Shown piece by piece: positions 699 to 22,178 of a stretch of DNA of 64,000 nucleotides. Position numbers and translations under genes: made by a program. The stretch lies in the NCBI RefSeq assembly GCF_003018255.1, contig NZ_CP027440.1, one strand, 5' to 3'. Every line of letters starts with the position of its first letter. The stretch's first letter is position 1. The notes beneath the pieces were generated by a model. The model saw nothing but the letters and a program-made list of their open reading frames with translations, searched no databases and was not told the origin of the DNA. This DNA is from Escherichia coli (GTDB taxonomy: Bacteria > Pseudomonadota > Gammaproteobacteria > Enterobacterales > Enterobacteriaceae).

Positions 699-2042
699 AT
701 GGATCAGACATATTCTCTGGAGTCATTCCTCAACCATGTCCAAAAGCGCGACCCGAATCAAACCGAGTTCGCGCAAGCCGTTCGTGAAGTAATGACCACA
801 CTCTGGCCTTTTCTTGAACAAAATCCAAAATATCGTCAGATGTCATTACTGGAGCGTCTGGTTGAACCGGAGCGCGTGATCCAGTTTCGCGTGGTATGGG
901 TTGATGATCGCAACCAGGTGCAGGTCAACCGCGCATGGCGCGTGCAATTCAGCTCCGCTATCGGTCCGTACAAAGGCGGTATGCGCTTCCACCCTTCAGT
1001 AAACCTTTCCATTCTCAAATTCCTCGGCTTCGAGCAAACCTTTAAAAATGCCCTGACAACCCTGCCGATGGGCGGTGGTAAAGGCGGCAGCGATTTCGAC
1101 CCGAAAGGGAAAAGCGAAGGCGAAGTTATGCGTTTTTGCCAGGCGCTGATGACTGAACTGTATCGCCACCTGGGCGCGGATACTGACGTTCCGGCAGGTG
1201 ATATCGGCGTTGGTGGTCGTGAAGTCGGCTTTATGGCGGGGATGATGAAAAAGCTCTCCAACAATACCGCCTGCGTCTTCACCGGTAAGGGCCTTTCATT
1301 TGGCGGCAGTCTTATTCGCCCGGAAGCTACCGGCTACGGTCTGGTTTATTTCACCGAAGCAATGCTAAAACGCCACGGTATGGGTTTTGAAGGGATGCGA
1401 GTTTCCGTTTCTGGCTCCGGCAACGTCGCCCAGTACGCTATCGAAAAAGCGATGGAATTTGGTGCTCGTGTGATCACTGCGTCAGACTCCAGCGGCACTG
1501 TAGTTGATGAAAGCGGATTCACGAAAGAGAAACTGGCACGTCTTATCGAAATCAAAGCCAGCCGCGATGGTCGAGTGGCTGATTACGCCAAAGAATTTGG
1601 TCTGGTCTATCTCGAAGGCCAACAACCGTGGTCTGTACCGGTTGATATCGCCCTGCCTTGCGCCACCCAGAACGAACTGGATGTTGACGCCGCGCATCAG
1701 CTTATCGCCAATGGCGTTAAAGCCGTCGCCGAAGGGGCAAATATGCCGACCACCATCGAAGCGACTGAACTGTTCCAGCAGGCAGGCGTACTGTTTGCAC
1801 CGGGTAAAGCGGCTAATGCTGGCGGTGTAGCAACATCGGGCCTGGAAATGGCGCAAAACGCTGCGCGCCTGGGCTGGAAAGCCGAGAAAGTTGACGCACG
1901 TTTGCATCACATCATGCTGGATATCCACCATGCCTGTGTTGAGCATGGTGGTGAAGGTGAGCAAACCAACTACGTGCAGGGGGCGAACATTGCCGGTTTT
2001 GTGAAGGTTGCGGATGCGATGTTAAGCCAGGGCGTGATTTAA
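699..2042 (+). CDS. gdhA: NADP-specific glutamate dehydrogenase
   Basis: 447-aa ORF with GdhA hallmarks (GGGKGGSDFDPKGKS, catalytic Lys region); recognised as E. coli GdhA. Confidence 0.97.
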   Translation: MDQTYSLESFLNHVQKRDPNQTEFAQAVREVMTTLWPFLEQNPKYRQMSLLERLVEPERVIQFRVVWVDDRNQVQVNRAWRVQFSSAIGPYKGGMRFHPSVNLSILKFLGFEQTFKNALTTLPMGGGKGGSDFDPKGKSEGEVMRFCQALMTELYRHLGADTDVPAGDIGVGGREVGFMAGMMKKLSNNTACVFTGKGLSFGGSLIRPEATGYGLVYFTEAMLKRHGMGFEGMRVSVSGSGNVAQYAIEKAMEFGARVITASDSSGTVVDESGFTKEKLARLIEIKASRDGRVADYAKEFGLVYLEGQQPWSVPVDIALPCATQNELDVDAAHQLIANGVKAVAEGANMPTTIEATELFQQAGVLFAPGKAANAGGVATSGLEMAQNAARLGWKAEKVDARLHHIMLDIHHACVEHGGEGEQTNYVQGANIAGFVKVADAMLSQGVI

Positions 2043-2050
2043 GACAATTG

Positions 2051-2082
2051 TGCCGGATACAGCGCAAACGCCTTATCCGGCC
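2051..2082. repeat. REP (repetitive extragenic palindromic) element
   Basis: tgccggatacagcgcaaacgccttatccggcc: imperfect palindrome GCCGGATA...TATCCGGC typical of E. coli REP units, directly downstream of the gdhA stop. Confidence 0.65.
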
Positions 2083-2118
2083 ATAAAAATCTTCAGTATC
2101 AGATGGTTGAAAGAACCT

Positions 2119-4074
2119 TTATATTATCACTCCATTGCCCGCCTCTTCTGATGGCGGGCTTTTTTTCGGCGCTCTCTTGCGTGGCGAATCCTTTTTCTTC
2201 CCTTCTCCACCGCCGGGAGCCATTATTCCCCGAAACTGCCTTACCGACGTGCGCTTTGCCTGATCAATCAACTGGTACAATGTCCCCACCAGCGGCTGCA
2301 TAAAGTCCTGATAGCGACACTGCTTTTCGCTGATTTGCGTCAGCACCGATTCCCAGTGCGCGGTCATGTCCGGTCGCGTCGCCATTTCTGGCAGCGAATG
2401 GAATAGCGCTTTTCCGGCGTCGGTGGAGTGGATATAGCGCCCTTTTTTGGTCAGGAAGCCTCGCTTGAACAGCAGTTCAATAATCCCGGCGCGAGTCGCT
2501 TCTGTCCCCAGACCATCGGTCGCACGAAGGATCTTTTTCAGATCTTTGTCCTGCACAAAACGTGCTATCCCGGTCATCGCTGAAAGCAGTGTTGCATCGG
2601 TAAAATGGCGCGGCGGCTGGGTTTGCCGCTCTACCACTTCACCTTTTTCACACAGCAACTCATCGCCTTTCGCCACCACAGGCAGCGGCGTGCCGTCGTT
2701 TTCTTCATCGCGCTCTTTGCTGCCTAACAGTGTGCGCCAGCCTGCTTCAGCAAGAAAACGGGCTTTAGCGACAAATTTGCCTTTGGCAATGTCCAGTTCG
2801 ATAACACACTTGCGGAACACCGCATCCGGGCAGAACTGCATCAAATACTGACGGGCAATCAGGTTATAGACCTTCGCTTCGTTCTCCGTCAGGTTGATCG
2901 CAGAACTCCGTGCGGTCGGGATGATGGCGTGGTGCGCATCGACTTTTTTGTCATCCCAACAGCGGTTGCGTATATCTGGATCGACCACTGGCTGCGGCAA
3001 CAGATCTGGTGCATGAACGCTGATAGCATTCATCACCGCGTGGCGTCCGGCAAAATGTTCTTCTGGCAAATAGCGGCAATCGGAACGCGGATAAGTGATT
3101 AGCTTGTGCGTTTCGTACAGCTTCTGGCAGATATCAAGCACGTTCTGCGCGCTCAGACCAAAACGTTTAGCCGCTTCAATCTGCAACGCCGAAAGCGAAA
3201 AAGGCAGCGGCGCGGATTCTGATTCCCGTTTATCGTTATAGCTGGTGACAATAGCTGGTTGACCACTAATGCGGTTAACCACATGCTCCGCCAGTGGACG
3301 ATGTAATAAGCGCCCTTCTTCATCCTGGTACGGTTCACACGCTTCGCTCGGTTGCCAGATAGCGGTAAACCGCTCATCGGCAGGTGTCACGATATGTGCT
3401 TTGACTTCAAAGAAGTCTTTCGCCACGAAGTTTTCAATCTCTTCGTCGCGGCGCACCACCAGTCCGAGTACGGGCGTCTGCACGCGTCCCACGGAAAGCA
3501 CGCCCTGATAACCGGCATTGCGACCGAGAATGGTATACGCACGGGTCATATTAATGCCGTACAGCCAGTCAGCTCGCGCACGCGCCAGTGCAGAAACGCA
3601 CAGCGGTACAAACTCGCTATTGGAGCGAAGACGATCGATCGCCCGCTCAACCGCCTGCGGGTTCAGGTCGTTTATCAAACAACGCTGTACCTGCTGGCGC
3701 TTTTCCGGTGCCAGTTGCAGGTAGTCCAGCACTTCATCCACCAGCAGTTGCCCTTCGCGATCCGGGTCTCCGGCGTGAACGATTTCGCTGGCTTCATGCA
3801 GGAAGCGTTTGATGACATTAAGTTGTTTAGTCACGGAGGGTCGGGGCTGTAATTGCCACTTTTCCGGGACAATCGGCAAATCCGCAAGATTCCAGCGCGC
3901 ATAGCGGCTGTCGTAGGCGTCTGGCTGCGCCTGCTCAAGCAGGTGACCGATACACCAGGTCACCACCTGACCATTACCGCACTCGATAAAGCCATCGCCT
4001 TTCCGGTGCGGTTTAGGCAGGACATCAGCAATGGCGCGCGCCAGACTCGGTTTTTCGGCAATAAACAACCGCAT
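2119..4074 (-). CDS. topB: DNA topoisomerase III
   Basis: Track ORF 2119..4131; start placed at internal [10 protein letters not shown] (recalled TopB N-terminus), giving 651 aa; Toprim/topo IA motifs; lysine/arginine-rich C-terminal tail. Confidence 0.92.
2137..2166 (+). terminator. Rho-independent terminator downstream of gdhA (lies inside the 3' end of the topB ORF)
   Basis: gcccgcc-tcttctgat-ggcgggc followed by TTTTTTT. Confidence 0.65.
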
Positions 4075-5950: not shown

Positions 5951-7807
5951 ATGCGAACCCTTTGGCGATTTATTGCCGGATTTTTTAAATGGACGTGGCG
6001 TCTGCTGAATTTCGTCCGTGAAATGGTACTTAACCTGTTCTTTATTTTTCTCGTGCTGGTTGGTGTGGGGATCTGGATGCAGGTCAGTGGTGGTGATTCG
6101 AAAGAAACGGCCAGTCGTGGCGCACTGCTGCTGGACATTTCTGGTGTGATCGTCGATAAACCCGACAGTTCTCAGCGGTTTAGTAAATTAAGCCGCCAGC
6201 TGCTTGGTGCCAGTTCCGATCGTCTGCAGGAAAACTCACTGTTTGATATCGTCAACACCATTCGCCAGGCGAAGGACGACCGCAATATCACCGGTATTGT
6301 GATGGATCTGAAAAACTTCGCAGGCGGCGACCAGCCGTCTATGCAGTACATCGGCAAAGCTCTGAAAGAGTTTCGTGATAGCGGGAAACCGGTTTATGCC
6401 GTTGGCGAGAACTACAGCCAGGGGCAATATTATCTCGCCAGTTTCGCCAATAAAATTTGGCTGTCTCCGCAAGGCGTGGTTGATCTGCACGGCTTTGCCA
6501 CCAACGGTCTGTACTACAAATCATTACTGGATAAGCTGAAAGTTTCCACCCATGTGTTCCGCGTGGGTACGTATAAATCTGCCGTTGAACCGTTTATTCG
6601 TGATGATATGTCGCCGGCAGCCCGCGAAGCTGACAGCCGCTGGATTGGTGAGCTGTGGCAAAACTATCTGAATACTGTTGCCGCTAACCGGCAGATCCCT
6701 GCTCAGCAGGTATTCCCTGGCGCGCAAGGGTTGCTTGAGGGTTTAACCAAAACCGGTGGCGATACCGCGAAATATGCGCTGGAAAACAAGCTGGTCGATG
6801 CACTGGCATCGAGTGCCGAAATCGAAAAAACTCTGACCAAAGAGTTCGGCTGGAGCAAGACTGATAAAAATTATCGCGCCATCAGTTATTACGATTACGC
6901 ATTGAAAACGCCGGCAGATACCGGTGACAGCATCGGAGTCGTCTTCGCTAATGGCGCAATTATGGATGGCGAGGAAACTCAGGGGAATGTTGGCGGTGAT
7001 ACCACTGCGGCACAAATCCGCGACGCTCGCCTTGACCCGAAAGTGAAAGCGATTGTCCTGCGTGTTAATAGCCCAGGCGGCAGCGTTACCGCGTCTGAAG
7101 TGATTCGCGCTGAACTGGCAGCAGCCCGGGCAGCGGGTAAGCCTGTGGTTGTATCGATGGGCGGCATGGCGGCATCTGGTGGTTACTGGATTTCCACACC
7201 AGCTAATTACATTGTGGCTAACCCCAGCACCCTGACCGGTTCTATCGGTATCTTCGGCGTGATCACCACCGTAGAAAATAGTCTGGATTCGATTGGTGTT
7301 CATACTGATGGTGTCTCAACTTCACCGCTGGCGGATGTTTCTATCACCAGAGCACTGCCGCCGGAAGCGCAGCAGATGATGCAGTTAAGCATTGAGAATG
7401 GCTATAAACGCTTTATCACGCTGGTTGCTGATGCGCGTCATTCAACGCCAGAGCAGATTGATAAAATCGCCCAGGGCCATGTCTGGACCGGTCAGGATGC
7501 AAAAGCTAACGGGCTGGTCGATAGTCTCGGGGATTTCGATGATGCGGTCGCCAAAGCAGCAGAGCTGGCAAAAGTGAAACAGTGGCATCTGGAATACTAC
7601 GTTGATGAACCGACCTTCTTCGACAAAGTGATGGACAACATGTCTGGTTCTGTCCGGGCAATGTTGCCAGATGCGTTCCAGGCCATGTTACCTGCACCGC
7701 TGGCCTCGGTAGCCTCTACCGTTAAAAGTGAAAGCGACAAGCTGGCAGCGTTTAACGACCCACAAAACCGTTATGCGTTTTGCCTGACCTGCGCCAACGT
7801 GCGTTAA
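5951..7807 (+). CDS. sppA: Signal peptide peptidase A (protease IV)
   Basis: Start at [12 protein letters not shown] gives 618 aa; tandem S49 peptidase domains. Confidence 0.95.
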
Positions 7808-8998: not shown

Positions 8999-9640
8999 AT
9001 GCACCCTCGCGCCCTGTTACTGGTCGATTTACAAAATGATTTCTGTGCTGGTGGCGCGCTCGCCGTGCCGGAAGGTGACAGTACGGTGGATGTCGCTAAC
9101 CGCCTGATTGACTGGTGCCAGTCGCGCGGTGAAGCGGTTATCGCCAGTCAGGACTGGCACCCGGCGAATCACGGCAGTTTTGCCAGTCAGCACGGTGTAG
9201 AGCCTTATACGCCAGGCCAACTCGACGGTTTGCCACAAACCTTCTGGCCAGATCACTGTGTGCAGAACAGTGAAGGCGCACAATTACATCCGTTACTGAA
9301 CCAAAAAGCGATCGCAGCGGTGTTCCATAAAGGCGAAAATCCTTTAGTTGACAGTTACAGTGCCTTTTTTGATAACGGCCGTCGGCAGAAAACCACGCTC
9401 GATGACTGGTTACGCGATCATGAAATCGATGAATTGATCATTATGGGTCTGGCTACTGACTATTGCGTGAAGTTTACCGTGCTGGACGCGTTACAGTTAG
9501 GTTATAAGGTTAATGTGATTACCGATGGTTGTCGTGGCGTGAATATCCAGCCACAGGACAGTGCGCACGCGTTTATGGAGATGTCAGCAGCTGGGGCAAC
9601 GCTATATACGCTGGCAGATTGGGAAGAGACGCAGGAGTAA
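8999..9640 (+). CDS. pncA: Nicotinamidase/pyrazinamidase
   Basis: Start at MHPRALLLVDLQNDFC gives 213 aa; isochorismatase-fold catalytic residues. Confidence 0.92.
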   Translation: MHPRALLLVDLQNDFCAGGALAVPEGDSTVDVANRLIDWCQSRGEAVIASQDWHPANHGSFASQHGVEPYTPGQLDGLPQTFWPDHCVQNSEGAQLHPLLNQKAIAAVFHKGENPLVDSYSAFFDNGRRQKTTLDDWLRDHEIDELIIMGLATDYCVKFTVLDALQLGYKVNVITDGCRGVNIQPQDSAHAFMEMSAAGATLYTLADWEETQE

Positions 9641-9660
9641 TATTAGTTGGATTCATCTCT

Positions 9661-9691
9661 GGCCTACATTTCCTCAATGACATTGTAGGCC
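9661..9691. other. Inverted repeat (8-bp stem GGCCTACA / TGTAGGCC, 15-nt loop) in the pncA-yeaC junction
   Basis: Read directly from ggcctacatttcctcaatgacattgtaggcc; no T-run follows, so not a canonical terminator. Confidence 0.3.
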
Positions 9692-9800
9692 AGGTAATAC
9701 TTGTTAGTGTTGCATTTAACCTACTCGCAGCTAAAACACGACATCCGAACAAGTCTATTTGCCCTCCCTTAATAACAGGCTTAAATACTAGACAACTCAT

Positions 9801-10073
9801 TCACTTAAACATGGCAATAGGCTTTGCTGAGATACCAAAATCTTCTTTTAACTGTTGTTTGCTCTTCATGACCATCTGACCATTTGTGTCAATTGTCATA
9901 TGCTGTGCTTCGGTATTATTACGGGCTTGCCACAGCATCACCAGTTGCAGGCAGTTCTCTTTTTGTTCCTCGGTCAACGCAACGCCATCAGGCCATTTCC
10001 CCAGTTCAACGGCGGTCGACAAACGCTGGTATACCTCAGGCGTCATGCTGTTGATAATGTCATCAAGATTCAT
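9801..10073 (-). CDS. yeaC: DUF1315 protein YeaC
   Basis: Start at MNLDDIINSMTPEVYQRL gives 90 aa; directly downstream of msrB. Confidence 0.85.
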   Translation of the reverse strand: MNLDDIINSMTPEVYQRLSTAVELGKWPDGVALTEEQKENCLQLVMLWQARNNTEAQHMTIDTNGQMVMKSKQQLKEDFGISAKPIAMFK

Positions 10074-13826: not shown

Positions 13827-14573
13827 TCAGAATTTGTAGGTGATCCCGGTAGAAATCAGGCCAGTCCAGGATTTATCCACCATTGGGCTGTCAGTAACTT
13901 CATCAGACAGACGGGTGTAGCGCGCGGTACCGTAAACACTCCAGTCACCGAGGAAGTTGTAGCTGGCGCTCAGCTCCAGGTAAGGGCTCCAGCTGTCGTT
14001 CGGGTTATAGCCACGCAGACCGCTGCGAGCGGACTCTTTGCGCGATACGCCATAATAGTATTCGTTCTGGTTTTCGCTGTTCCACTGCACACCAATACCC
14101 GGAGTCACGGTCAGGCCACCGTTGGTGTAACGATACAACCAGGCCATATCCCAGACGATGCCGTTGCTGTTATCCAGGGTATCGCCAGCCAGGGTGGTAC
14201 GCAGGTAACCGTACTGGGTAAAGTGAGCATAAGACAGACCAGCCATCATGGTGCTCTTACGGTCATCCAGGTGACGCATTTGGTGATCGCCACTGTCTTT
14301 AGCTTTGAAGTAAAGCGGCGACCAGTAAGCGGTAATTGAAAGTTTGTCCGTTGCGTCATTCCACAGGTAGTAACCACCACCTAAGCCACGGAACCAGAAG
14401 TTATCGCCGTCATAGTTGATTACCGGTACTGGGTAAACATCGGTATCGTAATCTTTATATGGGTGTTCAACGACACCTACGCCTGCGCCCAGGGAAAATT
14501 TACCTTCAGCGTGCGCTACGCCTGCAGACGTTGCGATAAGCACTCCAAGTGCCAGAAGTTTGAGTTTGGTCAC
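13827..14573 (-). CDS. mipA: MltA-interacting outer-membrane protein MipA
   Basis: 248-aa ORF with signal peptide and C-terminal aromatic residue (beta-barrel OMP style). Confidence 0.92.
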   Translation of the reverse strand: MTKLKLLALGVLIATSAGVAHAEGKFSLGAGVGVVEHPYKDYDTDVYPVPVINYDGDNFWFRGLGGGYYLWNDATDKLSITAYWSPLYFKAKDSGDHQMRHLDDRKSTMMAGLSYAHFTQYGYLRTTLAGDTLDNSNGIVWDMAWLYRYTNGGLTVTPGIGVQWNSENQNEYYYGVSRKESARSGLRGYNPNDSWSPYLELSASYNFLGDWSVYGTARYTRLSDEVTDSPMVDKSWTGLISTGITYKF

Positions 14574-15008
14574 AATTAATCATTCCTTAAACAAATGTTT
14601 AGCGGGCGACAAAGTTTACCCGTCAATACATCGAAACCCAACCTTTTTACGTTTTCATTTTTTATAGTAACTGTTTAATTTTCCTGACGCAGATGACACC
14701 ACTCTTACAGCCAAATGAATTTAGCGTTACTGGCGACCCTGGTCTTTACATTAATTATGCAAAATTTATGGATGAGTTGTTGATATGCCATTGAAATTAA
14801 GAAAGCCGTGCAGGCAAGTTTTCCATTTGCCATCTACGCTTAATTTTGAAGGTGTATCACCGGGCACGTTGTTCTCATCGTCGATAAAATGGCATGAGAG
14901 TTGCTGTGTTTTAGCAAGAGACGTCGTTCAGTTTACCTCTTCCGGGAGCCTCTACTATTCATATGAACGGCTCTTAACCTGTGCTAAAAAACGAAAGGAC
15001 GGCATACC

Positions 15009-16943
15009 ATGAATATATTCGATCACTATCGCCAGCGATATGAAGCTGCCAAGGACGAAGAGTTCACACTGCAGGAGTTTCTTACCACTTGTCGGCAAGA
15101 TCGCAGTGCTTATGCCAACGCGGCTGAGCGGCTATTGATGGCTATCGGTGAGCCTGTCATGGTCGATACAGCCCTGGAACCCAGACTTTCTCGACTCTTT
15201 TCTAACCGGGTCATTGCACGTTATCCGGCGTTTGAAGAGTTTTACGGCATGGAAGACGCGATTGAACAGATTGTCTCTTATCTGAAACACGCGGCTCAGG
15301 GGCTGGAAGAGAAGAAACAAATTCTGTATCTGCTGGGGCCTGTGGGTGGGGGTAAATCATCGCTTGCTGAGCGACTGAAATCATTAATGCAGCTCGTACC
15401 GATTTATGTATTGAGCGCCAACGGTGAGCGTAGCCCGGTCAACGATCATCCGTTCTGTCTTTTCAATCCGCAGGAAGATGCGCAGATTCTGGAAAAAGAG
15501 TATGGCATTCCTCGCCGTTATCTCGGCACCATCATGTCGCCGTGGGCGGCAAAACGCCTGCATGAATTTGGTGGCGATATCACTAAGTTCCGGGTAGTGA
15601 AGGTCTGGCCGTCAATTCTGCAACAAATTGCTATCGCCAAAACGGAACCCGGTGATGAGAACAACCAGGACATCTCCGCGCTGGTTGGGAAAGTCGATAT
15701 TCGTAAACTCGAACACTACGCGCAGAATGACCCGGACGCCTACGGCTATTCCGGTGCATTGTGCCGCGCCAACCAGGGGATCATGGAATTCGTTGAGATG
15801 TTTAAAGCACCGATTAAAGTGCTGCATCCCTTGCTAACCGCCACTCAGGAAGGTAACTACAACGGGACGGAAGGTATCTCCGCCCTGCCGTTCAACGGGA
15901 TTATTCTCGCCCACTCGAACGAATCCGAATGGGTCACTTTCCGTAATAACAAAAACAACGAAGCCTTCCTCGATCGTGTTTACATCGTGAAGGTGCCGTA
16001 TTGCTTGCGCATTTCCGAAGAGATCAAAATCTACGAGAAATTGCTTAATCACAGTGAATTGACTCACGCCCCCTGCGCCCCTGGCACGCTGGAAACGCTG
16101 TCACGTTTTTCCATTCTTTCGCGCCTTAAAGAGCCAGAAAACTCCAGCATTTATTCAAAGATGCGGGTTTATGATGGCGAAAGTCTGAAAGACACAGATC
16201 CCAAAGCCAAGTCGTATCAGGAATATCGTGACTACGCCGGTGTCGATGAAGGGATGAACGGTCTGTCGACGCGTTTTGCGTTTAAGATCCTCTCCCGCGT
16301 GTTCAACTTCGATCATGTAGAAGTGGCGGCAAACCCGGTTCATCTGTTCTACGTCCTGGAACAGCAGATCGAGCGCGAGCAGTTCCCGCAAGAACAGGCA
16401 GAACGCTATCTGGAGTTCCTGAAAGGTTATCTGATCCCGAAATATGCCGAGTTTATCGGCAAAGAGATCCAGACGGCCTACCTTGAATCCTATTCCGAAT
16501 ATGGGCAAAACATTTTCGACCGTTATGTTACCTACGCGGATTTCTGGATTCAGGATCAGGAGTATCGCGATCCTGATACCGGGCAGTTGTTTGACCGCGA
16601 GTCTCTTAACGCCGAGCTGGAGAAAATCGAGAAACCGGCGGGGATCAGTAATCCAAAAGATTTCCGCAACGAGATTGTTAACTTCGTACTGCGCGCCAGA
16701 GCGAATAACAGCGGACGCAATCCGAACTGGACCAGCTATGAAAAACTGCGCACGGTTATTGAGAAGAAAATGTTCTCCAATACCGAGGAGCTGTTGCCGG
16801 TTATTTCGTTTAACGCCAAAACGTCAACCGACGAGCAGAAGAAACATGACGACTTTGTCGACCGTATGATGGAAAAAGGCTACACCCGTAAACAGGTGCG
16901 TTTACTGTGCGAATGGTATTTGCGCGTACGTAAATCGTCTTAA
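15009..16943 (+). CDS. yeaG: PrkA-family serine protein kinase YeaG
   Basis: 644-aa ORF with Walker A GPVGGGKSS. Confidence 0.95.
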   Translation: MNIFDHYRQRYEAAKDEEFTLQEFLTTCRQDRSAYANAAERLLMAIGEPVMVDTALEPRLSRLFSNRVIARYPAFEEFYGMEDAIEQIVSYLKHAAQGLEEKKQILYLLGPVGGGKSSLAERLKSLMQLVPIYVLSANGERSPVNDHPFCLFNPQEDAQILEKEYGIPRRYLGTIMSPWAAKRLHEFGGDITKFRVVKVWPSILQQIAIAKTEPGDENNQDISALVGKVDIRKLEHYAQNDPDAYGYSGALCRANQGIMEFVEMFKAPIKVLHPLLTATQEGNYNGTEGISALPFNGIILAHSNESEWVTFRNNKNNEAFLDRVYIVKVPYCLRISEEIKIYEKLLNHSELTHAPCAPGTLETLSRFSILSRLKEPENSSIYSKMRVYDGESLKDTDPKAKSYQEYRDYAGVDEGMNGLSTRFAFKILSRVFNFDHVEVAANPVHLFYVLEQQIEREQFPQEQAERYLEFLKGYLIPKYAEFIGKEIQTAYLESYSEYGQNIFDRYVTYADFWIQDQEYRDPDTGQLFDRESLNAELEKIEKPAGISNPKDFRNEIVNFVLRARANNSGRNPNWTSYEKLRTVIEKKMFSNTEELLPVISFNAKTSTDEQKKHDDFVDRMMEKGYTRKQVRLLCEWYLRVRKSS

Positions 16944-17043
16944 CAACCCTGGCCCGGTACACATGCTACCGGGCCTACAACGACAGCGAACCGTGGGCCA
17001 GAGAAGCGGCAACACAGGCGTAGCATAAAGTTGGCAAATGTAG

Positions 17044-18339
<1,296 letters not shown>

Positions 18340-18344
18340 AACTG

Positions 18345-18376
18345 TCAGCCGGGTCATTATCGCCTGGCTGATTTTT
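18345..18376 (+). terminator. Possible terminator after yeaH
   Basis: tcagcc...ggctga stem followed by TTTTT; loop is long, so weak. Confidence 0.35.
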
Positions 18377-18485
18377 AGTTCACTGTAAATTATCTCATTT
18401 ATTACATACATTAGCTTACAATCGCTTTAAATATGACAGCATAACCTTTACACAATTTAGTTCCAGAAAACAATCATTCGGAAAA

Positions 18486-19961
18486 ATGATTCGGTCAACA
18501 CGTATTTCCCTGGGGTTATTCTTTAATTATTTTTTATCGTTAACGAAAATTGATCCTGGTCAAAACTATATATCTCTGCCATCAATAAAATCCAGCACTC
18601 ACATTGCTCTCCTTTTTATGGCTTCTATGGGTACACAAAAATTAAAAGCTCAAGGCTTTTTTATTTTCAGCTTATTGCTGACGTTAATTTTATTTTGCAT
18701 TACTACCTTATATAACGAAAACACGAATGTAAAACTCATCCCACAGATGAATTACCTGATGGTTGTTGTGGCTTTGTTTTTCCTTAACGCCGTCATTTTC
18801 CTTTTCATGTTAATGAAGTATTTCACTAACAAACAAATTTTACCAACACTCATTTTAAGCCTTGCATTTTTAAGTGGCCTTATCTATTTAGTTGAAACCA
18901 TTGTAATTATCCATAAACCAATCAACGGCAGTACACTGATCCAGACAAAGTCGAATGATGTTTCTATTTTCTATATTTTCCGCCAACTCAGTTTCATTTG
19001 TTTAACCTCGCTGGCGCTCTTTTGTTATGGGAAAGACAACATCCTTGACAACAATAAGAAGAAAACTGGCATTCTGTTGCTGGCGCTGATTCCTTTTTTA
19101 GTTTTTCCCCTTCTGGCACACAATCTGAGCAGTTATAACGCTGACTATTCTTTGTATGTCGTCGATTACTGTCCGGACAACCATACTGCGACCTGGGGAA
19201 TCAACTATACAAAAATATTGGTTTGTTTGTGGGCATTTTTACTGTTCTTTATTATCATGCGTACACGATTAGCCAGCGAACTATGGCCGTTAATAGCATT
19301 ATTATGTCTGGCATCGCTATGCTGCAACTTACTTCTACTGACTCTGGATGAGTATAATTACACCATCTGGTATATCAGTCGCGGGATTGAAGTTTCCAGT
19401 AAACTGTTTGTTGTGTCTTTTCTGATTTATAACATTTTTCAGGAACTGCAACTCTCCAGCAAACTGGCAGTTCATGATGTACTGACCAATATTTATAATC
19501 GGCGCTACTTTTTCAACAGCGTAGAGTCATTATTGTCGCGACCTGTTGTTAAGGACTTTTGTGTCATGCTGGTTGATATTAATCAGTTCAAACGCATCAA
19601 TGCCCAATGGGGACATCGTGTGGGTGATAAAGTGCTGGTATCAATTGTCGATATTATCCAGCAAAGCATCCGCCCCGATGATATTTTAGCGCGACTGGAG
19701 GGTGAGGTGTTTGGCTTGCTATTTACCGAACTCAATAGTGCCCAGGCAAAAATCATTGCGGAACGTATGCGTAAAAATGTCGAACTCCTGACCGGCTTTA
19801 GTAACAGATATGATGTTCCTGAGCAAATGACCATCAGTATTGGCACGGTTTTTTCAACGGGTGACACACGTAATATCTCGCTTGTCATGACGGAAGCAGA
19901 TCAAGCCTTACGCGAAGCGAAAAGCGAGGGGGGCAACAAAGTGATTATTCATCATATTTAA
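18486..19961 (+). CDS. yeaI: Membrane-anchored GGDEF-domain protein with degenerate active site (EGEVF)
   Basis: 491-aa ORF; AT-rich multi-TM N-terminal half; GGDEF fold with the signature replaced by EGEVF at 19698-19712. N-terminal start not independently verified. Confidence 0.85.
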   Translation: MIRSTRISLGLFFNYFLSLTKIDPGQNYISLPSIKSSTHIALLFMASMGTQKLKAQGFFIFSLLLTLILFCITTLYNENTNVKLIPQMNYLMVVVALFFLNAVIFLFMLMKYFTNKQILPTLILSLAFLSGLIYLVETIVIIHKPINGSTLIQTKSNDVSIFYIFRQLSFICLTSLALFCYGKDNILDNNKKKTGILLLALIPFLVFPLLAHNLSSYNADYSLYVVDYCPDNHTATWGINYTKILVCLWAFLLFFIIMRTRLASELWPLIALLCLASLCCNLLLLTLDEYNYTIWYISRGIEVSSKLFVVSFLIYNIFQELQLSSKLAVHDVLTNIYNRRYFFNSVESLLSRPVVKDFCVMLVDINQFKRINAQWGHRVGDKVLVSIVDIIQQSIRPDDILARLEGEVFGLLFTELNSAQAKIIAERMRKNVELLTGFSNRYDVPEQMTISIGTVFSTGDTRNISLVMTEADQALREAKSEGGNKVIIHHI

Positions 19962-20141
19962 GTGCAAAAATATTCAGAGCCATGCTTTTTGCGTGGCTTT
20001 TGCATACAATTTATTACTATTACCCCTAAATTTCCCCTCCCCAGCGGCGCAGAGATGAGTATAATTAGCGCCCCTGTGCCAGGCCGCAATCGAACTTTAT
20101 CTGGTTTTCTCGTTTCACTAACCGAAGGAGTGCCATTTATC

Positions 20142-21632
20142 ATGAAATTGCACCATAGAATGCTCCGGCATTTTATCGCCGCAAGTGTCATTGTGCTGAC
20201 ATCTTCCTTCCTTATTTTTGAACTTGTCGCCAGCGACAGAGCAATGAGTGCCTATCTGCGCTATATCGTGCAGAGAGCAGACTCCTCCTTTCTTTATGAT
20301 AAGTATCAGAATCAGAGTATTGCCGCGCATGTGATGCGCGCTCTCGCTGCTGAGCAGTCGGAAGTGTCGCCAGAACAGCGGCGCGCCATCTGCGAGGCTT
20401 TTGAGTCTGCCAATAATACCCATGGCTTAAACCTGACTGCCCATAAATACCCGGACTTACGCGGCACACTACAAACCGCATCCACTGACTGCGACACAAT
20501 TGTGGAAGCTGCAGCACTATTACCCGCTTTTGATCAGGCAGTGGAAAGCAACCGCCACCAGGATGATTACGGTTCAGGTCTTGGGATGGCCGAAGAGAAA
20601 TTTCACTATTATCTCGATCTCAATGACCGCTATGTCTATTTTTATGAGCCGGTTAATGTTGAGTACTTTGCGATGAATAACTGGTCTTTCCTGCAGTCAG
20701 GAAGTATTGGCATCGATCGCAAAGATATTGAAAAGGTATTTACCGGGCGTACCGTTTTATCGAGCATTTACCAGGATCAGCGTACTAAACAGAACGTGAT
20801 GAGTTTGCTGACGCCGGTATATGTCGCAGGGCAGCTAAAAGGGATTGTGCTGCTGGATATTAACAAAAACAATCTGCGGAATATCTTTTACACTCATGAC
20901 CGCCCTCTCCTCTGGCGTTTTCTCAATGTCACGCTAACCGATACCGATTCGGGGCGCGACATTATCATCAACCAGAGCGAAGATAATCTGTTCCAGTATG
21001 TCAGTTACGTCCATGACTTACCGGGCGGCATTCGTGTCTCGTTATCCATTGATATTCTTTACTTTATCACGTCTTCGTGGAAAAGCGTTCTGTTCTGGAT
21101 TTTGACGGCGTTAATTTTGCTGAATATGGTGCGGATGCACTTCCGTTTATACCAAAACGTGTCGCGAGAAAATATTAGTGATGCGATGACTGGACTGTAT
21201 AATCGCAAAATTTTAACCCCTGAACTGGAGCAGCGGTTGCAGAAGCTGGTGCAATCCGGTTCTTCGGTGATGTTTATTGCAATTGACATGGACAAGTTAA
21301 AGCAAATAAATGACACCCTCGGTCATCAGGAGGGGGATTTAGCGATTACGTTATTAGCTCAGGCGATTAAACAATCGATTCGTAAAAGTGATTATGCCAT
21401 CCGACTCGGTGGCGATGAATTCTGCATCATTCTTGTCGATTCGACGCCGCAAATTGCAGCACAACTGCCTGAACGTATCGAAAAACGTCTGCAACATATC
21501 GCGCCGCAGAAAGAGATCGGCTTCTCTTCCGGTATTTACGCGATGAAAGAAAACGATACGTTACATGATGCGTATAAAGCTTCCGATGAGCGTTTATATG
21601 TCAATAAGCAGAACAAAAACAGCCGTTCATGA
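20142..21632 (+). CDS. yeaJ: Diguanylate cyclase DgcJ (periplasmic sensor + GGDEF)
   Basis: Start at MKLHHRMLRHF gives 496 aa; intact RLGGDEF motif. Confidence 0.9.
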   Translation: MKLHHRMLRHFIAASVIVLTSSFLIFELVASDRAMSAYLRYIVQRADSSFLYDKYQNQSIAAHVMRALAAEQSEVSPEQRRAICEAFESANNTHGLNLTAHKYPDLRGTLQTASTDCDTIVEAAALLPAFDQAVESNRHQDDYGSGLGMAEEKFHYYLDLNDRYVYFYEPVNVEYFAMNNWSFLQSGSIGIDRKDIEKVFTGRTVLSSIYQDQRTKQNVMSLLTPVYVAGQLKGIVLLDINKNNLRNIFYTHDRPLLWRFLNVTLTDTDSGRDIIINQSEDNLFQYVSYVHDLPGGIRVSLSIDILYFITSSWKSVLFWILTALILLNMVRMHFRLYQNVSRENISDAMTGLYNRKILTPELEQRLQKLVQSGSSVMFIAIDMDKLKQINDTLGHQEGDLAITLLAQAIKQSIRKSDYAIRLGGDEFCIILVDSTPQIAAQLPERIEKRLQHIAPQKEIGFSSGIYAMKENDTLHDAYKASDERLYVNKQNKNSRS

Positions 21633-21674
21633 TAACCTTCTGTGGTTGTTTGCTTGTAATCTCAGGAGCATGAA

Positions 21675-22178
21675 ATGACTGAAATGGCTAAAGGAAGCGT
21701 GACGCATCAGCGGTTAATCGCTTTATTATCACAAGAAGGTGCTGACTTCCGCGTCGTTACCCATGAAGCGGTAGGTAAATGTGAAGCGGTGTCAGAAATT
21801 CGTGGCACCGCTTTAGGCCAGGGGGCTAAGGCACTGGTATGTAAAGTCAAAGGCAATGGTGTAAATCAACATGTTCTGGCGATCCTCGCGGCCGATCAAC
21901 AGGCCGATCTGAGCCAACTCGCCAGCCATATAGGCGGATTACGCGCTTCGTTGGCCAGCCCGGCGGAAGTCGATGAACTCACAGGCTGTGTCTTCGGCGC
22001 GATCCCCCCTTTCAGCTTCCATCCAAAACTCAAACTGGTTGCCGATCCCCTACTCTTCGAACGATTTGATGAAATCGCCTTCAATGCAGGCATGCTGGAT
22101 AAATCCGTTATTTTGAAAACCGCGGATTATTTGCGCATTGCGCAACCAGAACTGGTCAATTTCCGCCGCACTGCGTAA
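21675..22178 (+). CDS. yeaK: YbaK-like aminoacyl-tRNA deacylase YeaK
   Basis: 167-aa ORF of the YbaK/ProX deacylase family. Confidence 0.88.
   Translation: MTEMAKGSVTHQRLIALLSQEGADFRVVTHEAVGKCEAVSEIRGTALGQGAKALVCKVKGNGVNQHVLAILAADQQADLSQLASHIGGLRASLASPAEVDELTGCVFGAIPPFSFHPKLKLVADPLLFERFDEIAFNAGMLDKSVILKTADYLRIAQPELVNFRRTA

Follow-up and report, generated by a model that had tools for sequence, protein, structure and literature searches.

Introduction

In Escherichia coli K-12 MG1655 (b1761-b1763), the genes that flank the gdhA-topB interval and their orientation are the same as in the locus described here, and a REP-type element follows directly after the gdhA stop codon. The stop codons of the two genes are separated by 1284 bp in MG1655, compared to 76 bp in the locus described here, and this segment contains a BIME, ynjI (1041 bp; DUF1266, 346 aa, minus strand), and a promoter controlled by BglJ-RcsB and H-NS; the gene order gdhA-ynjI-topB that the original prediction gave for K-12 is therefore correct. 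The K-12 allele retains a T7 run and the right arm of a hairpin inside the 3' end of topB, although this hairpin is weak (-7.2 kcal/mol), and the encoded TopB comprises 653 aa with a different tail. Expression of ynjI is repressed by H-NS/StpA and activated by BglJ-RcsB (PMC3950696). The GC content of the ynjI segment is 35-45% versus 52-58% in its flanks. AT-richness and H-NS repression are hallmarks of horizontally acquired DNA, which suggests that ynjI was acquired in this manner. No integrase, IS element, or target-site duplication was visible at the boundaries of the K-12 insert.

Two other arrangements of the locus are represented by strains UTI89 and UPEC 536. In UTI89 (NC_007946.1; gdhA at 1875832-1877175, topB at 1877252-1879207), the two genes are separated by the same 76-bp gap as in the locus described here, with the same REP, hairpin with T7, and 651-aa TopB. 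This tight junction, which is also present in the RefSeq annotation of strain JNE23-011, has already been annotated and is a common natural accessory-gene polymorphism. UPEC 536 has an island at this position, the left edge of which coincides exactly with the gdhA stop. This allele (locus L004 of our collection, 13943-21929; NZ_CP066743.1, 2303942-2311928) contains 6040 bp of inserted DNA coding for an Hsp70-family protein (566 aa) and two proteins of ~648 aa, each having 5-6 Sel1 repeats and, at the N-terminus, a weak J-domain. Unrelated DNA takes the place of the final ~33 topB codons in this strain, resulting in a 648-aa TopB with a new, still lysine-rich tail ending in KKAPNKRVKKAAKPKTDNTDSAN at the stop.

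A basic C-terminal region of ~33 aa has been described in E. coli Topo III (PMC9369019, citing Zhang et al., 1996) and matches the stretch of TopB that varies among these alleles. According to Zhang et al. (1996), as cited there, the basic tail is important for catalysis. Here, we analyzed the junction in a stretch of 64,000 nucleotides of E. coli DNA from contig NZ_CP027440.1 (hereafter, the window), for which the original prediction had proposed a strain lacking ynjI or a clean deletion of that gene.

Organization of the gdhA-topB Junction

In the window, gdhA (NADP-specific glutamate dehydrogenase; 699..2042, plus strand) codes for 447 aa that match the NCBIfam equivalog NF006929 (777 bits), ends with a TAA stop codon at 2040-2042 in the list of open reading frames, and is annotated identically in strain JNE23-011. 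The convergent topB (DNA topoisomerase III; 2119..4074, minus strand) is intact and codes for 651 aa (TIGR01056, 1023 bits), with its stop codon at 2119-2121. A protein comparison showed that the encoded TopB is 100% identical to RefSeq WP_001235804.1 of strain JNE23-011. The genes selD, ydjA, and sppA follow past topB. The intergenic gap (2043..2118) is exactly 76 bp, which agrees to the base with the original prediction, and comprises the unoccupied state of an insertion hotspot that is described below.

A single REP element (2048..2085, plus strand) is located 6-43 nt past the gdhA stop and ahead of the topB stop, with a core palindrome GCCGGATACAGCGCAAACGCCTTATCCGGCC at 2052-2082. A terminator-like hairpin in the sense of gdhA (GCCCGCC-N9-GGCGGGC followed by T7; 2137..2166, plus strand) lies inside topB codons and is the proposed gdhA terminator. 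Both the REP after the gdhA stop and the placement of the hairpin and T-run within the last 15 codons of topB were found as had been predicted. The 3' end of topB (2119..2229, minus strand) is hypervariable, encodes the ~36-residue basic C-terminal tail of TopB, and contains the right boundary of the polymorphic segment.

The predicted lack of ynjI was likewise confirmed. No coding sequence for YnjI (PF06889) was identified between gdhA and topB, and a tblastn search of the 64-kb window with K-12 YnjI was empty. In addition, no leftover ynjI sequence and no ynjI-side BIME or promoter DNA was seen in the 76-bp gap. The absence of ynjI together with clean-looking boundaries could be taken to indicate a laboratory-engineered knockout of the Keio/FLP or Cre-lox type, and these are the only features that favor such an origin. 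However, the 34-bp FRT and loxP sites had no match in the whole window at ≤3 mismatches, nor at ≤5 mismatches, consistent with the earlier statement that no FRT/lox-type scar is present. Moreover, the flanks are 2.6-4.3% diverged from K-12, indicating that the source is not a K-12 derivative, and the window has a UTI89-type TopB tail and the same junction as 1514 natural isolates. An engineered knockout is therefore so improbable as to be practically negligible.

An artefact of assembly, in which a collapse at REP repeats dropped ~1.3 kb of sequence, would be compatible with the presence of REP elements flanking the site in both allele types. However, the REPs in K-12 and in the window are of different types, such that there is no shared repeat to mediate a collapse. 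Furthermore, an identical structure was observed in many independent complete genomes, including UTI89, and the TopB tail allele differs coherently from that of K-12. We consider an assembly artefact to be exceedingly unlikely.

Distribution among E. coli Genomes

The population sample comprised 5426 complete E. coli genomes, in which the junction was scored as contiguous when one place covered at least 80% of window positions 1700-2500. A contiguous gdhA-topB junction was detected in 1514 of these genomes (~28%). DNA of ynjI was present in 3506 genomes (~65%), 3458 of which contained it at near full length. The 536-type island was covered to at least 80% in 61 of the 5426 genomes, and ~350 had a best match to it that was at least 95% identical. 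Together, the contiguous, ynjI, and 536-island states sum to nearly all 5426 genomes.

The distribution of the contiguous state, along with the identical gap in UTI89, argues against the proposal of a clean deletion of ynjI. Alignment of the junction to MG1655 and other genomes, comparison of TopB tails, and mapping of breakpoints, all of which had been suggested as checks, were carried out and show that wild-type strains share the arrangement in the window. The original prediction had itself allowed that many wild-type E. coli might have gdhA-REP-topB because ynjI is specific to the K-12 lineage; the first part of this statement holds, but the second does not, since 3506 of the 5426 genomes have ynjI.

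The junction in UTI89 is identical to window positions 2013-2260 at 246 of 248 nt, and two residues in the tail of TopB differ as a result of the substitutions at 2123 and 2208 (…GVII-stop against …GVIT-stop and GGGEG against GGREG). Strain O55:H7 USDA5905 has ynjI, as in K-12. For these four strains only, we take K-12 to belong to phylogroup A and O55:H7 to phylogroup E (both with ynjI), and UTI89 (empty) and 536 (island) to belong to phylogroup B2. Identity in the flanks of the window was ~98.5% with 536 and UTI89, 98.8% with ST117-like APEC, and 95.7-97.4% with K-12.

The lineage of the source strain has been sampled only sparsely. Across the initial 20 kb of the window, only three of the 5426 complete genomes were at least 99% identical, with the best matches being JNE23-011 and JNE112863 (99.5%). 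At the next level of identity (98.8%), most genomes were from avian/APEC isolates, O78:H4 among them. Another common polymorphism of the presence/absence type was observed 7.6 kb from the gdhA-topB junction. There, yeaC (9801..10073) comes immediately after pncA (8999..9640), and the eight-gene ydjE-ydjL cluster (~9.5 kb) that is present between pncA and yeaC in K-12, 536, and UTI89 is absent at window positions 9640-9801. Adjacency of pncA and yeaC was identified in 1089 of the 5426 complete genomes.

Outgroup Comparisons and Polarity

A scan of species-representative genomes that was anchored on TopB yielded 80 loci. Among these, gdhA was convergent with and adjacent to topB in 53 loci, and the gap was less than 200 bp in 44 of the 53 (-4 to 188 bp). 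Between stops, the gap was 179 bp in E. albertii, 95 bp in Escherichia sp. E1V33, 81 bp in E. coli SCPM-O-B-8794, 29 bp in Salmonella enterica subsp. diarizonae, and 15-99 bp in Citrobacter species, and it was less than 200 bp in most loci from Enterobacter, Kosakonia, Kluyvera, and others. Outside of E. coli, and among the loci scanned, ynjI was identified only in Escherichia sp. MOD1-EC7003 (L008), where the encoded protein has 91% aa identity and the gap is 1284 bp. This occurrence indicates that the insertion is either old or mobile.

Column-by-column alignment of the window with E. albertii, Escherichia sp. E1V33, and E. coli SCPM-O-B-8794 extends through the REP, the spacer, the stop codon of topB, and the tail of TopB. 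Since these elements have orthologs in outgroups, a simple deletion of ynjI would not regenerate the sequence of the window. The orthologous outgroup junctions thus also argue against the proposed clean deletion, as does the abutment of gdhA and topB in most other Enterobacteriaceae that were sampled. The two features expected of an ancestral, unoccupied junction, namely orthology with outgroups and a tight arrangement in the majority of taxa outside of E. coli, were both observed. Based on these comparisons and on the composition and regulation of ynjI, we conclude that the tight gdhA-topB junction is the probable ancestral state and that ynjI represents a derived insertion, the opposite direction to that implied by the proposed deletion, with polarity within E. 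coli being assigned by outgroup majority.

Secondary loss of ynjI must be weighed against this reading. Here, the lineage would once have had ynjI and would have lost it through a precise deletion or, more plausibly, through homologous replacement of the entire gdhA-topB interval by an empty allele of another E. coli. The observation that ynjI is the majority state in E. coli (3506 of 5426), along with its presence in the non-coli Escherichia L008, which suggests that its acquisition may be earlier than part of the E. coli radiation, is in keeping with such a loss. Divergence also peaks within gdhA, at window positions 901-1200, and at the 3' end of topB, which is compatible with recombination tracts. 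However, the REP, spacer, topB stop, and tail are of the outgroup type, which a simple deletion would not restore. Furthermore, the near identity of the junction to that of UTI89 and the lack of any trace of ynjI-side sequence argue against loss, and a loss by allelic replacement would still produce an allele of the ancestral type, not the scar of a deletion. Secondary loss is therefore improbable.

Collectively, these observations indicate that the window very probably comprises the natural, ancestral, unoccupied junction of a wild-type E. coli with B2/ST117-like flanks, in which nothing has been deleted, and that horizontally acquired cargo has come to occupy the gap in other lineages. Homologous recombination within the core genes on either side probably carried the alleles from one lineage to another. 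The right-hand junction probably lies in or beside the basic tail of TopB, a segment under little constraint, and this position would account for the distinct tail of each allele.

Other Insertions at the Same Site

The topB-gdhA gap was occupied by different cargo in several genera. Besides the Hsp70 and J-domain/Sel1 genes of UPEC 536, a related Hsp70/Sel1 set was identified in K. spallanzanii beside an MFS transporter, dehydratase, and LysR module, and an MFS/dehydratase/LysR module was also identified in Superficieibacter. The gap contained a TRAP transporter in Entomohabitans, a PTS, porin, and beta-lactamase-family set in Pluralibacter, and an AT-rich cluster of small ORFs in strain RIT691. 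The presence of different cargo in 536 and in other genera at the same gap indicates that the gdhA-topB gap is an insertion hotspot. Unrelated cargos of 3.5-10 kb were located at L047 11929-15971, L051 5762-11428, L059 11866-15536, L069 11938-15770, and L030 11935-21935, and their types include AT-rich (38% GC) small paralogous ORFs, a PTS/porin/beta-lactamase-family set, a TRAP transporter, and an MFS/enolase-superfamily/LysR set.

Three readings of the cargos were considered and rejected. First, genes for DUF1266, Sel1, J-domain, and Hsp70 proteins co-occur near hscC in K-12. Nevertheless, ynjI is not supported as a remnant or relative of the Hsp70/J-Sel1 island of 536, with which it shares neither DNA homology nor protein similarity (E = 4). 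Second, a role of the cargos as defence systems was not supported, as PADLOC returned nothing significant for YnjI, weak repeat-driven matches for the Sel1 proteins, and a marginal match for Hsp70. Third, the 536 island does not appear to have arrived with a Klebsiella-type topB tail, because the tail of K. spallanzanii differs and only the Hsp70 gene matches (71% nt).

An element of ~128 bp is located just downstream of topB in 536 (L004 15950-16077). Nearly all E. coli genomes had between one and six matches to this element (~91-92% identity), and it also matched intergenic sites in loci from Kluyvera, Raoultella, Atlantibacter, and Yersinia. It is probably an intergenic repeat of the ERIC/IRU type.

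Breakpoints and the TopB Tail

Comparison of the window with K-12 using blastn revealed homology up to position 2043, one base beyond the gdhA stop, that picks up again at 2144. In the corresponding comparison with UPEC 536, homology ends at 2042 and picks up again at 2219. The left boundary of all alternative alleles is thus 2042/2043, directly after the gdhA stop. To the right, the segment from the topB stop to ~2230 can be aligned with K-12, yet it is extremely diverged: mismatches in 2119-2268 numbered 44 of 150 with K-12 and 74 of 150 with 536, compared to 0-12 per 150 nt elsewhere.

In the encoded protein, this divergence is concentrated in the tail. At least 612 of TopB residues 1-615 are identical among the window, UTI89, K-12, and 536, and TopB outside of the ~36-residue tail is >99% identical between junction alleles. 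In contrast, the tail of the window is identical to that of K-12 at 22 of 38 positions and to that of 536 at 14 of 39 positions, and the length of TopB differs among the window (651 aa), K-12 (653 aa), and 536 (648 aa). At least three types of TopB tail are present within E. coli alone.

The last 48 nt of topB in K-12 (L001 5000-5047; ending in KKSPPADEVGSGAIA at the stop) are identical at 45 of 48 positions to the allele of a Pseudocitrobacter MAG (L021), compared to only ~33 of 48 positions with the allele of the window and UTI89. The similarity between K-12 and Pseudocitrobacter points to either an old trans-genus class of tail alleles or an exchange between genera at the 3' end of topB. 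Since the Pseudocitrobacter MAG does not have ynjI but has a K-12-like tail end and weak stem, the K-12 tail would represent a separate and old allele class. In the E. albertii type strain NBRC 107761 (L007), an in-frame stop was observed within the TopB tail (…APSSGE-stop-KKKASPRKR…), ~80 nt before locus position 6231, and TopB would consequently lose its last ~27 residues, including the lysine-rich segment.

A more far-reaching proposal is that the gdhA/topB gap is a multi-allelic integration hotspot with a right exchange point inside topB, such that each gain or swap of cargo rewrites the ~33-36-residue basic DNA-binding tail, with the gdhA terminator encoded in the same tail. We regard this proposal as unlikely overall and offer it tentatively. 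If true, turnover of cargo could alter the activity of Topo III and transcriptional interference between gdhA and topB.

REP Element and Terminator-Like Hairpin

REPs are imperfect palindromes of ~35 nt with a GCCGGATG...CGCCTTATCCGGCCTAC-type consensus that form a stable stem-loop; they make up a dispersed multi-copy family and typically lie outside genes, close behind a stop codon. The element in the window agrees with REPs both in its palindrome and consensus and in its extragenic position, with a folding energy of -18.7 kcal/mol (z = -4.3) for the palindrome at 2052-2082. Orthologous REPs were identified after gdhA in L005, L006, and L007 (GCCGGATGCGGCGT(A/G)AACGCCTTATCCGGCCTAC). A regex scan detected one copy in the 64-kb window and, across the 1.7 Mb of enterobacterial loci collected for comparison, 41 palindromes resembling it, versus none in shuffled window sequence. 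The REP-derived Rfam family naRNA4 matched the window REP at 32.8 bits (E = 5.5e-4), which is below the gathering score of 59.5. A known RNA family at the junction was accordingly rejected, as Rfam returned only this sub-threshold match and one match at chance level.

The arms of the hairpin (GCCCGCC at 2137-2143 and GGCGGGC at 2153-2159) are followed by T7 at 2160-2166, and the end of the T-run lies 15 codons ahead of the topB stop. With a 7-bp GC stem that the fold extends to 9 pairs, the hairpin has a folding energy of -17.5 kcal/mol (z = -3.8), which no shuffled sequence out of 200 reached. A pattern-based terminator scanner passed over this hairpin, which has a 9-nt loop versus the scanner's limit of 3-8. 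The segment at 2137-2166 nonetheless has the GC-rich stem-loop and U-run that characterize intrinsic terminators. On these grounds, the hairpin and T7 are probably the intrinsic terminator of gdhA. On the topB strand, no U-run follows the stem, which makes a role in ending topB transcripts unlikely.

The hairpin and T7 are kept at -13 to -16 kcal/mol in tight-junction E. coli, Escherichia sp. E1V33, and five Citrobacter species, although the portion of TopB that the hairpin overlaps is the least conserved of the protein. A weaker stem was observed in the tight-type junction of E. albertii (-9.0 kcal/mol) and in the three ynjI alleles (-7.2 in K-12, -10.4, and -7.9 kcal/mol). Decay of the hairpin as a consequence of ynjI insertion was considered but is not supported, since the ynjI-free Pseudocitrobacter MAG (L021) has a K-12-type tail and the same weak stem.

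A report by Merino et al. in Gene in 1987 is said to have described REP as an mRNA 3' stabilizer for K-12 gdhA. In the window, gdhA transcripts would pass the REP hairpin, which may act as a stabilizer of the 3' end, and would then end at the GC hairpin and U7 that overlap the last 15 codons of the opposing topB. Termination at the embedded hairpin might limit antisense read-through into topB.

Discussion

These results correct an expectation that is centered on K-12. Rather than being a fixed component of the interval, ynjI is an accessory, horizontally acquired gene, and approximately one third of sequenced E. coli are naturally without it. The absence of ynjI should therefore not be flagged as a deletion. 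For specialists, the points of interest are that the gap is a recurrent insertion hotspot across Enterobacteriaceae and that the basic tail of Topo III varies with the junction allele and overlaps a terminator-like hairpin.

The junction in the window is only mildly unusual, in that the cargo state is coupled to the TopB tail allele and a probable gdhA terminator lies within topB codons. With enterobacterial REP/BIME elements and intrinsic terminators in convergent regions, it shares a ~35-nt palindrome just past a stop codon and a GC hairpin followed by a U-run. Unlike the usual enterobacterial terminators, however, the candidate hairpin in the window is located inside the coding sequence of the opposing gene, where RNA structure and TopB codons impose constraints on the same bases.
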